Below are positions 1-690 of a stretch of DNA of 39,488 bases, piece after piece; position 1 is the stretch's first letter, and each line of letters starts with the position of its first letter. Source of the DNA: Escherichia phage vB_Eco_ZCEC02; the sequence record PV833354.1, one strand, 5' to 3'. The position numbers and the translations under genes are program-made. Under the pieces are notes generated by a model. That model saw only the letters and a list, made by a program, of their open reading frames with translations, was not told where the DNA came from and did not search any database.

Positions 1-59
1 GAGGTCATCGACTGATAGGTGGCCTCAAAGATTACCACTTACATTGATAGGAGTTAACT

Positions 60-164
60 ATGAGCACTGCAATCATCTGGACTATCTCAGGCTTCGTAGC
101 GTGGGGAATGTTTACTCTAGTCTGCAAACTACCGGTCCTTACTCAACTGTTATGGGGCTTATGA
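60..164 (+). CDS. small hydrophobic early peptide (34 aa), hypothetical
   Basis: ATG at 60 preceded by AGGAG (49-53) at 6-nt spacing; product MSTAIIWTISGFVAWGMFTLVCKLPVLTQLLWGL is hydrophobic; its TGA overlaps the next ATG (ATGA at 161-164). Below the 60-aa cutoff of the ORF track. Confidence 0.3.
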   Translation: MSTAIIWTISGFVAWGMFTLVCKLPVLTQLLWGL

Positions 165-364
165 CTATGAGTATCGCACTATTGATAGCCATAGGCTATG
201 GACTTATCGCCTACGTGCTGGTGAGAGACATCAACAAAGCGCGTAAAGTCTACAAATTCAACTATGTACGTCTGGGTAGCTGGACTGTACGTCAACCTAA
301 CGGACGATTCATGCGTAACTTAGCGAACGTCTGGGATATAGCAACACTTGGGAGCAAACTGTAA
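161..364 (+). CDS. hypothetical early membrane protein (about 67 aa); alternative starts at 152, 167 or the TTG at 44 of the track ORF
   Basis: Track ORF 44..364 begins with TTG and has no SD; in-frame ATGs at 152/161/167; the ATGA overlap at 161 suggests translational coupling; one predicted TM segment (SIALLIAIGYGLIAYVLV). Confidence 0.4.
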   Translation: MTMSIALLIAIGYGLIAYVLVRDINKARKVYKFNYVRLGSWTVRQPNGRFMRNLANVWDIATLGSKL

Positions 365-690
365 TGAACAAGTCATACGGGATTAATCTGGTACACTCTA
401 TGGACGCAGACATGCAAATGTTAAGCCTACTGGCTACCGGGTATCGTCACGGAACGTCAAGTCACTCCGCACGTCAACAGCAGGAGCGGGACCGGGTACT
501 GCAAGCAAGACTCCGGGCTGAGGGCCATAAGTCCGAACTAATGTGTCTGGCGTATGGTGGACGACCAATCACTGACGATGGTAAACTTTTAGTCTCAGGC
601 TGGAAGGTGATAGACCAACGGTCAACCATCAAGCACACGACTCATGGTGACTTCAGTCATCTCCACGCTAACCCGCTGATATGCAAGTAA
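364..690 (+). CDS. hypothetical early protein (108 aa)
   Basis: ORF with ATG overlapping the upstream stop (TAATG), GGAG upstream; sits where T7 has genes 0.4-0.7 but shows no kinase motifs. Confidence 0.5.
   Translation: MNKSYGINLVHSMDADMQMLSLLATGYRHGTSSHSARQQQERDRVLQARLRAEGHKSELMCLAYGGRPITDDGKLLVSGWKVIDQRSTIKHTTHGDFSHLHANPLICK

Follow-up and report, generated by a model that had tools for sequence, protein, structure and literature searches.

Small early genes in front of gene 1 of Escherichia phage vB_Eco_ZCEC02, a phage with no detectable gene 0.7 kinase

Several T7-like phages carry a set of small genes just 5′ of the promoter of gene 1, which encodes the phage RNA polymerase (RNAP). 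The closest described sets are those of K1F (AM084414), EcoDS1, CR8 and the Citrobacter phages SH3-SH5 (ORF4-6), and true homologues stand in the same order in the genome of Escherichia phage vB_Eco_ZCEC02 (PV833354.1), whose complete sequence of 39,488 nucleotides (nt), called the window in what follows, was analysed here. The three open reading frames (ORFs) in question lie between 60 and 690 and encode proteins of 34, 67 and 108 amino acids (aa), referred to as p34, p67 and p108; the corresponding names are 0.36-type/0.37/0.38 in K1F, 0.6/0.38 in EcoDS1 and 0.705/0.71/0.38 in CR8. K1F, SH3 and PE3-1 differ in having an unrelated 55-aa peptide in the hydrophobic slot occupied here by p34, and the N-terminal module of the gp0.38 proteins varies by phage. 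The feature as such is ordinary for the genus Kayfunavirus, and many existing records list the trio as hypothetical proteins. Hypothetical is also the status of the three ORFs in the paper on phages SH3-SH5, which gives for the first and third of them the same ribosome-binding sequences as are seen here (PMC4925675). Loss of gene 0.7, the protein kinase gene of T7, has likewise been published for this genus, in the case of CR44b (PMC4038870), and is also visible in the annotations of K1F and EcoDS1.

A preliminary description of the vB_Eco_ZCEC02 sequence had taken the trio for a replacement of the missing kinase. This did not hold, as the same cassette stands beside a kinase gene in CR8 and IMM-002 and in some 40 further relatives, the slot of the kinase in this lineage being upstream of it. 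The identity of the cassette and its independence from the kinase are the parts of our account in which we have the greatest confidence. As a whole, positions 1-690 are best explained, in our view and with some reserve, as the end of a Kayfunavirus class I early operon that is farthest from the promoter, comprising a conserved cassette of 0.5-like, 0.6-like and 0.38 genes whose products are probably non-essential accessories in host takeover or anti-defence.

The three genes and their transcription unit

The cassette and its immediate surroundings comprise the following features.

39475-39488, + strand: 5′ half of a putative RNase III-type hairpin, which straddles the window junction
1-41, + strand: 3′ half of this hairpin and conserved AAAGATTACCACTT leader, from fold and alignment
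50-53, + strand: Shine-Dalgarno (SD) sequence GGAG of the p34 gene, 6 nt before the ATG
60-164, + strand: p34, a 34-aa hydrophobic peptide
161-364, + strand: p67, 67 aa, phrog_2385
364-690, + strand: p108, 108 aa, phrog_7066, gp0.38 family
696-718, + strand: phage-RNAP promoter, directly upstream of gene 1, at which the early block read by host RNAP only comes to its end
719-787, + strand: leader of gene 1, with three direct repeats and a weak hairpin
788-3469, + strand: gene 1, single-subunit RNAP (62.8% identity with T7 gp1, 898 positions aligned)

The three ORFs are placed as in the preliminary description, all in the early region before gene 1, and the first of them, credited there with an ideal SD, has a strong one. 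Homologues of p67 occur in 234 phage records (118 protein clusters), those of p108 in 223 and those of p34 in about 37; these and all other such counts are rough and refer to records, not species. The 67-aa protein corresponds to K1F gp0.37/'0.6' and EcoDS1 gp0.6 (92-94% identity) and to CR8 gp0.71, and shares with their family the profile (phrog_2385, E=2.7e-32), the predicted N-terminal transmembrane (TM) segment and the KARKVY...TVRQPNGRF domain. The 108-aa protein is a member of the gp0.38 family (phrog_7066, E=5.4e-45, residues 25-108 aligned), with a core 88-92% identical to that of its relatives of the K1F/EcoDS1/CR8 type. For p34, which has no match among the PHROGs, homologues are found in CR8 (gp0.705, 47% identical) and CR44b (a 34-aa peptide, 91%).

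The short p34 frame remains open in 7 phages, down to the 47% amino-acid identity of CR8, and its substitutions fall mostly in the third position of the codon (first/second/third: 8/3/19, 4/1/12 and 4/1/13, for example); alternative frames over p34 carry stops in relatives. Because the frame stays open and changes mainly in third positions, p34 has the marks of a genuine gene under purifying selection. Its ATGA overlap with p67 (161-164), in which the ATG of p67 and the TGA of p34 share two letters, has its counterpart in tight spacing in every relative examined (-4, -1 or +3 nt). The start of p108 in turn overlaps the stop of p67 as TAATG, with a GGGAG of its own upstream. It is highly probable that all three are expressed early proteins.

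Could p34 be spurious, the real product being either a 106-aa ORF with a TTG start (44-364) or a fusion of p34 and p67 made by a -1 frameshift? The 106-aa ORF is open from the TTG at 44 in the frame of p67, the annotated '0.41' of CR44b is in that frame, and a -1 shift leads from the frame of p34 into that of p67. However, the upstream part of 44-364 contains stop codons in CR8, HHH and ZH4, and is therefore not conserved as coding sequence, whereas the p34 frame is open in all, with its third-position changes, and the strong SD stands before the ATG of p34, not before TTG 44. As to the fusion, there is no slippery heptamer of the type X_XXY_YYZ, no conservation is seen in the nucleotides leading up to the stop, and the arrangement in CR8 differs, with the two genes 3 nt apart in the same frame; the frameshift was rejected on these grounds. 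We find either form of this alternative scarcely credible. The coordinate 44 at which the preliminary description had begun the region stems only from that mechanically called 106-aa ORF.

At the level of the genome, positions 1-3500 of the window are 97-98% identical to Escherichia phages vB_EcoP-101136BS1, HC13, LM33_P1 and other members of Kayfunavirus, and by this measure the window is a Kayfunavirus genome (K1F-like; Autographiviridae, Studiervirinae) in circularly permuted form. Its position 1 corresponds to position 2138 of LM33_P1, and the intergenic distance over the window ends (73 + 59 = 132 nt) is the same in that phage, so that the window represents a circular permutation of the whole genome. 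The ends (39488/1) join seamlessly within the early region; the physical left end of the genome, at about 37522, aligns with position 1 of K1F, EcoDS1 and IMM-002. The preliminary description had characterised the stretch from the early ORFs to gene 1 as holding only short ORFs. Short ORFs are indeed present, but the window opens partway through the early region, and 1-690 is only the final third of that region; the remainder, at 38058-39488, was also checked.

The + strand has ten copies of the phage promoter core TAACTATCACTATAGGA, where 0.09 would be expected; the consensus is (A/T)AACTATCACTATAGG(A/G). The sites are 696-718, 4020, 5676, 6652, 14890, 17729, 18717, 23396, 31065 and 36925, and the sequence of the first is identical to one annotated as 'phi' promoter in EcoDS1. 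No terminator-like site was found in 36800-39488 or 1-900. A strong hairpin of intrinsic-terminator type at 5599-5626, right after the ligase gene, would correspond to TE, the early terminator of T7. Since a phage promoter is found only after p108, no terminator-like site lies between 36800 and 900, and a terminator-like hairpin follows at 5599-5626, the trio belongs to the class I unit transcribed by host RNAP. If T7 is a guide, E. coli RNAP would read from the left-end promoters to the terminator after the ligase gene, within the first minutes. With a phage promoter directly 5′ of gene 1, the phage RNAP is able to transcribe the gene that encodes it; the annotated signal at this position in T7 is instead the E. 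coli C promoter. The leader of gene 1 contains the direct repeats GACTCCAAGTGAAAGAC (728-744), GACTTTAAGTGAAAGAC (751-767) and GACTTTAAGTATG (778-790), and its hairpin, of weak fold (z=-0.8), might be an RNase III site. The third repeat, GACTTTAAGTATG, includes the gene 1 start codon, and the repeat region is identical in EcoDS1.

A further hairpin, irregular and 55 nt in length, is formed across the window junction (39475-39488 and 1-41), the whole stretch of 135 nt folding with -30 kcal/mol (z=-1.9). Hairpin and leader align with the stretch of T7 DNA that separates gene 0.4 from gene 0.5, both having TGAGTGATAGAC...AGGTC...GTGGCCT...GATTAYCACTT in common, and conservation extends to K1F, CR8 and IMM-002. 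We take the T7 stretch to be the R0.5 RNase III site (Dunn & Studier 1983). A cut by RNase III at the corresponding hairpin, as expected from T7, would yield an mRNA starting just 5′ of p34 and its strong SD. Ribosomes finishing p34 could then restart at the ATGA and produce p67 in linked amounts, and translation of p108 would proceed via the TAATG and its own SD.

The first two products are the hydrophobic part of the cassette. p34 is very hydrophobic (grand average of hydropathicity 1.39), with one predicted TM segment at about residues 4-22 and a conserved juxtamembrane motif, GKLPV(L/I/F)(T/S)Q. In p67, residues 3-21 have a mean Kyte-Doolittle hydropathy of 2.35 and are followed by a strongly basic tail (net charge +8); the TM segment of the CR8 homologue is at residues 4-22. 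Both proteins are probably inserted in the membrane, presumably the inner one, as single-pass proteins, and by the positive-inside rule should have an N-out/C-in topology (K23 follows the TM segment of p34). The small membrane peptides of the preliminary description are thus borne out by hydropathy, p34 as a hydrophobic peptide and p67 as a single-TM protein; the T7 parallel drawn there was less fortunate, as gp0.4 is not a membrane peptide and gp0.5/gp0.6 are the relevant analogue.

Alignment of the p67 family shows the TM segment to be variable except for a GYGLI motif, whereas the cytoplasmic part of about 45 aa, KARKVYKFNYV.LG.WTVRQPNGRF (KARKVYKFNYV.LGRWTVRQPNGRFMRNLANVWDIATLGSKL), is near-invariant across genera. 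We read this pattern as a membrane anchor joined to a specific interaction domain. The basic cytoplasmic domain might bind a host component that is itself conserved and is located on the cytoplasmic side of the membrane, with p34 as an exchangeable hydrophobic partner. The peptide slot 5′ of p67 is in fact exchangeable: besides p34 it holds, in 51 records, the unrelated K1F-type 55-aa peptide, which is two-TM-like, lies behind the same ATAGGAGTTAACT leader and is also present in SH3 and PE3-1, and in IMM-002 it holds no peptide at all. In CR44b the p34 gene is kept and most of the p67 gene is gone; the 34-aa ORF (1403-1507 of the record) there overlaps the annotated '0.41' coding sequence (CDS; 1333-1551), which is in the other frame, the non-conserved one.

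Absence of the kinase and the kinase slot

That a gene 0.7 kinase is absent, as the preliminary description had stated, was upheld in all searches. The best match of T7 gp0.7 by tblastn against the whole window had an E of 1.2, and the short kinases of CR8 and IMM-002 gave no match at E<=1e-3, although as a positive control they were recovered in their own genomes and found each other and T7 gp0.7. Nor do the three ORFs match a kinase family in Pfam, PHROGs or NCBIfam, in line with the earlier remark that no kinase motifs are visible in them. Kinase remnants elsewhere in the permuted genome were considered and dismissed, the three kinases having been searched across the whole window to no effect.

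The gene order of relatives that do have a kinase is informative here. In CR8 (Caroctavirus) it is 0.7 kinase, 0.705 (p34), 0.71 (p67), 0.38 (p108), phage promoter and gene 1, and in IMM-002 (Kayfunavirus) it is kinase, gp0.6 (p67), an inserted endonuclease, the gp0.38 core and gene 1. Klebsiella phage CTF-1 has a full-length kinase and, 5′ of it, a distant p67 homologue of the same build, in which a TM segment is followed by 'RFTVRLPNGRF' ('TVRxPNGRF' type), and SFP21B has both a short kinase and a p108 homologue. The kinases of CR8 and IMM-002, of 242-244 aa, are without the C-terminal shut-off domain of the T7 protein. Kinases of this short Kayfunavirus type (>=80% identity) occur in about 43 records, as against 223-234 for the cassette proteins, and the kinase is therefore a polymorphic accessory in the group; by this rough count, some four-fifths of the cassette-bearing records are without it. 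In IMM-002 the insertion between the p67 and gp0.38 homologues is an 'endonuclease VII' ORF (2720-3142), which suggests that mobile nuclease genes land at the p67/gp0.38 junction.

The place of the kinase in this lineage can be located in the window with the help of the remaining early genes, which together with the early terminator are listed here.

38058-38087, + strand: sigma-70-like promoter (TTGACA-18-TAGTAT), the best upstream of the early genes, by consensus match only
38291-38797, + strand: Ocr-like gene 0.3, the first early gene, 168 aa (T7 gp0.3 by tblastn, E=1.2e-25; phrog_2568)
38794-38979: 61-aa ORF of the early region
38972-39124, + strand: gp0.4-like 50-aa ORF (= EcoDS1 gp0.35), TTG start as listed
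39188-39415, + strand: p75, an acidic 75-aa ORF, phrog_32657
5599-5626, + strand: TE-like intrinsic terminator after the ligase gene, 12-bp stem and T-run

The kinase slot lies upstream of the hairpin that precedes p34, at 39172-39474. On its left, window positions 39120-39171 correspond to 1655-1707 of IMM-002, just 5′ of the kinase start at 1725; on its right, the kinase stop in IMM-002 is followed by the same conserved hairpin as is found before p34. The slot is empty in K1F, EcoDS1 and CR44b, in which the gp0.35 region runs straight into the hairpin. In vB_Eco_ZCEC02 it is occupied by p75, which has a net charge of -9 and a CxxH...CxHC pattern and may be an alternative accessory or anti-defence cassette. 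The kinase would thus be a separate polymorphic cassette with p75 in its place here, and if anything "replaced" the kinase in this phage it would be p75, outside 44-690.

Functional replacement of gp0.7, the kinase and host shut-off protein, by the trio itself, with takeover of the host by these proteins instead of by phosphorylation, was nevertheless weighed. It would fit the absence of a kinase from the entire window and the location of p108, which in T7 coordinates has the place of 0.7 between a 0.6-like gene and gene 1; moreover, as the short kinases of CR8 and IMM-002 have no shut-off domain, a separate shut-off protein is conceivable. Yet cassette and kinase occur together in CR8, IMM-002 and CTF-1, as do short kinase and p108 homologue in SFP21B, most cassette-bearing records have no kinase and yet an unchanged cassette, and the kinase slot of this lineage is elsewhere (39172-39474). 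The similarity that would be expected for the shut-off function was not found either: in pairwise tests p108, p67 and p34 gave z<=1.2 against full-length gp0.7, the C-terminal shut-off (SO) part included (z=1.2 for p108 in local alignment), and tblastn gave nothing. A functional replacement is on balance a most improbable explanation, and a promoter-distal cassette independent of the kinase is preferred.

Three observations on the other early genes and on database records may be added. The Ocr-like protein has 168 aa compared to 117 aa in T7, the extra 60 or so being C-terminal, past the acidic run. The product of 38972-39124 shares 55% identity with a protein for which a match to Pfam Phage_T7_GP04 had been precomputed, and has weak similarity to T7 gp0.4 (E=2e-4 in a single comparison); by these matches it, and not p34 or p67, appears to be the gp0.4-family homologue of this phage. 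Among the records, the CDS at 778-1284 of phage ZH4 (OM355495), annotated as 'protein kinase', is ocr-like, with 85% identity to the window gene 0.3 product, and from this similarity we consider the GenBank annotation wrong and the protein not a kinase; in the UNVERIFIED record of SHAK9454 (OR594184) the feature table is out of register with the sequence by about 2.8 kb, the RNAP feature being at 1013-3694 of the locus and the RNAP sequence starting at 3788.

The gp0.38 family and its N-terminal modules

p108 is a hydrophilic protein with a conserved core at about residues 25-108, in which T92, G95, D96, F97, H99 and L100 are invariant. Its family is restricted: 143 clusters at 90% identity were found among 5.8 billion proteins, all on T7-like contigs of about 40 kb or on short fragments, and 14 representative clusters among 1.84 billion proteins, of which one is a repeat-protein artefact. 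The artefact is the 1594-aa "homologue" P0248, a eukaryotic repeat protein, and was discarded. An AlphaFold2 model built with remote members is all-helical with a mean predicted local distance difference test (pLDDT) score of 71; that obtained from close homologues only was unusable (pLDDT 49). No fold match to the model was found, the only matches being members of its own family (EcoDS1 Gp0.38 and the CR8 protein). The PDB yielded no match to profiles of the p108 and p67 families, the signals in Pfam and NCBIfam were no more than sub-threshold noise (DUF3918, E=0.28; the geobacillin-26 family, which at E=0.0066 misses its cut-off; and Ninjurin, matched by the spurious 106-aa ORF), Rfam had no match in the window, and a literature search under the name 'gp0.38' returned nothing. 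Judged by the model, p108 is most likely a soluble helical adaptor or inhibitor, and the invariant C-terminal HT..GDFSHL motif probably contacts a partner.

In the window p108 ends at 690, just 5′ of the phage promoter (696-718) and of gene 1 (788), and gp0.38 is likewise found just 5′ of the gene 1 promoter in EcoDS1, CR8, CR44b, IMM-002 and metagenomic contig L013. A remote member, P0250, on the short contig L014, has a different neighbour. The N-terminus of the family is modular. The forms of 83-86 aa have no module there, the 108-aa form of the window begins with YGINLVHSMDADM..., the forms of 130-139 aa have a YGINLVHSMDADM-type module and a DUF2883-like insert, and those of CR8 and contig L013 start with 'IDGTCAG(I/V)(E/Q)(H/Y)F'.

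These N-terminal peptides raise the question of a relation to the RNAP encoded next to them. The interchangeable peptides could copy motifs of single-subunit RNAPs, the CR8 type perhaps motif A ('DGSCSGIQHF') and the window type the 'NFVHSxD' motif, and gp0.38 would then act on the phage enzyme as a regulator, chaperone or assembly factor, or serve as a decoy for a host factor that recognises RNAP. The location immediately 5′ of the gene 1 promoter, seen in all T7-like loci fetched but not on the short contig L014, is in favour of such a link, as is the match of the CR8/P0243-type N-terminus to motif A. With the CR8-type module, RNA_pol was the sole Pfam family matched (E=0.03), motif A of yeast mitochondrial RNAP was the best PDB match among 177,635 sequences (E=0.18), and in a six-frame database of 86,000 aa three phage RNAPs were the sole non-self matches (E 4e-4 to 1e-3; 14 bits, against 5.5 for the next). 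The ORFs with these N-termini, IDGTCAGVQYF in CR8 (2975-3331) and IDGTCAGIEHFARIGG in L013 (1116-1430), lie directly 5′ of an intact gene 1.

For the window type the resemblance is harder to establish. A profile of its N-terminus, in which N-x-x-H-x-x-D is invariant, leads to human mitochondrial RNAP ('NFIHSLDSSHMMLTAL', 10 of 13 PDB matches, E about 1.8), and the spacing is that of the RNAP motif 'NFVHSQD'. Against its own RNAP, however, the window N-terminus scores 3 bits, below non-coding frames, and it retrieves no PDB entry when searched as one sequence instead of a profile. Further points against a mimic are that the profile of the conserved core does not find RNAP (PF00940), that the members of 83-86 aa are without any N-terminal module, that the P0243 segment shares only 28/54 DNA positions with motif A of the RNAP on its own contig and is thus not a recent copy, and that the 'DSRGR' insert resembles DUF2883, not RNAP. 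We accordingly treat the resemblance as real for the CR8-type relatives and unproven for the window, and rate an action of gp0.38 on RNAP by mimicry as very improbable; if true, it would define a new class of polymerase-motif mimics. Two related proposals were rejected. p108 is not a mini-RNAP with motifs A, B and C, as its core finds no RNAP, 'LAYGG' and 'GDFSHL' are not significant and the order is not colinear in the window form; nor is DSRGRxYW the DxRGR motif of RNAP, the insert resembling DUF2883 and aligning with the degenerate tail of the motif-A-like module.

Possible roles and comparison with T7

The preliminary description had called the small proteins candidate host-takeover factors, which is a fair guess at the level of the class, given their location in an early region transcribed by host RNAP. 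T7 lacking genes 0.3-0.7 has wild-type infectivity on laboratory hosts (bioRxiv 10.1101/2021.08.23.457391), and by this analogy p34, p67 and p108 are most likely dispensable. Substitutes for kinase activity they most likely are not. T7 gp0.6 binds MreB and is a reported growth inhibitor, as cited in bioRxiv 10.64898/2026.09.14.751387. By analogy the target of the cassette could be sought in the machinery of envelope growth or division, a suggestion we regard as doubtful.

It is somewhat easier to envisage a role in anti-defence or exclusion at the membrane, although this too is tentative. p34 and p67 would act against membrane-associated abortive-infection or exclusion systems, or against the entry of superinfecting DNA, and p108 against a cytoplasmic defence protein. 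Such a role is consistent with the location in an early operon adjoining Ocr and a gp0.4-like gene, and with the accessory, mosaic distribution typical of counter-defence genes; the low model confidence of the invariant C-terminal motif of p108 would also suit a partner-binding peptide. The T7 kinase was recently described as a broad anti-defence factor (PMC13645617), and kinase-less phages plausibly rely on other early proteins. On the other side, no sequence or fold likeness to known anti-defence proteins was seen; PADLOC, whose models are of defence and not of anti-defence systems, was not searched.

Several points weigh against the account favoured here, that of a 0.5-like/0.6-like/0.38 cassette of takeover or anti-defence accessories. 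No homology ties p34, p67 or p108 to a target. The TM topology of p34 and p67 is a prediction from hydropathy and the positive-inside rule, and the RNase III site is deduced from an alignment and a modest fold (z=-1.9). The occurrence of p34 without p67 in CR44b, and of p67 without p34 in IMM-002, indicates that the two are not obligate partners. Finally, p34, p67 and p108 have no significant similarity to T7 gp0.4, 0.5, 0.6 or 0.7 and belong to different PHROGs, so that the analogy with T7 is positional and architectural only. In shuffle-controlled local alignments the trio had no significant homology to T7 gp0.4, 0.5, 0.6A, the 0.6B tail, 0.7, 1.1 and 1.2, with z=0.4 and -0.3 for p67 against gp0.6A/B (phrog_8393), z=-0.5 for p34 against gp0.5 (phrog_16572), and z=-0.8 and 0.2 for p34 and p67, respectively, against gp0.4.

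What value the cassette retains lies in its early proteins, which are conserved, can be put to the test and come from phages of the type considered for therapy that have no kinase. If the kinase is a broad anti-defence weapon in T7, the question arises how therapeutic candidates such as K1F, LM33_P1 and their relatives cope without it. The obvious candidates are the well conserved p67 and p108, together with p75 in the kinase slot, and a ready comparison set is at hand in natural variants that differ in having or lacking the kinase while their cassette is otherwise the same.

In terms of T7, p34 and p67 have the position of gp0.5 and gp0.6, being located after a DNA-homologous hairpin and leader, and in both phages within the early block read by host RNAP. 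p34, small and hydrophobic, is the first gene after the R0.5-type hairpin, and p67 follows it with an ATGA overlap, just as T7 gene 0.5, which encodes a hydrophobic peptide of 47 aa, is ATGA-coupled to gene 0.6; the architecture of a hydrophobic peptide followed by a small basic protein is the same. It is because of this position and design that p67 has been annotated as "gp0.6" in K1F and EcoDS1. Differences are evident at the protein level: by inspection T7 gp0.6A has no hydrophobic stretch of TM length, whereas p67 is predicted to be anchored in the membrane, and the FtsZ inhibitor gp0.4 of T7, also a small early protein, has no such stretch by inspection either. The T7 kinase gp0.7 is an early accessory encoded between 0.6 and gene 1, the place taken here by p108, while in the lineage of CR8 and IMM-002 the kinase is short and encoded upstream of the cassette.

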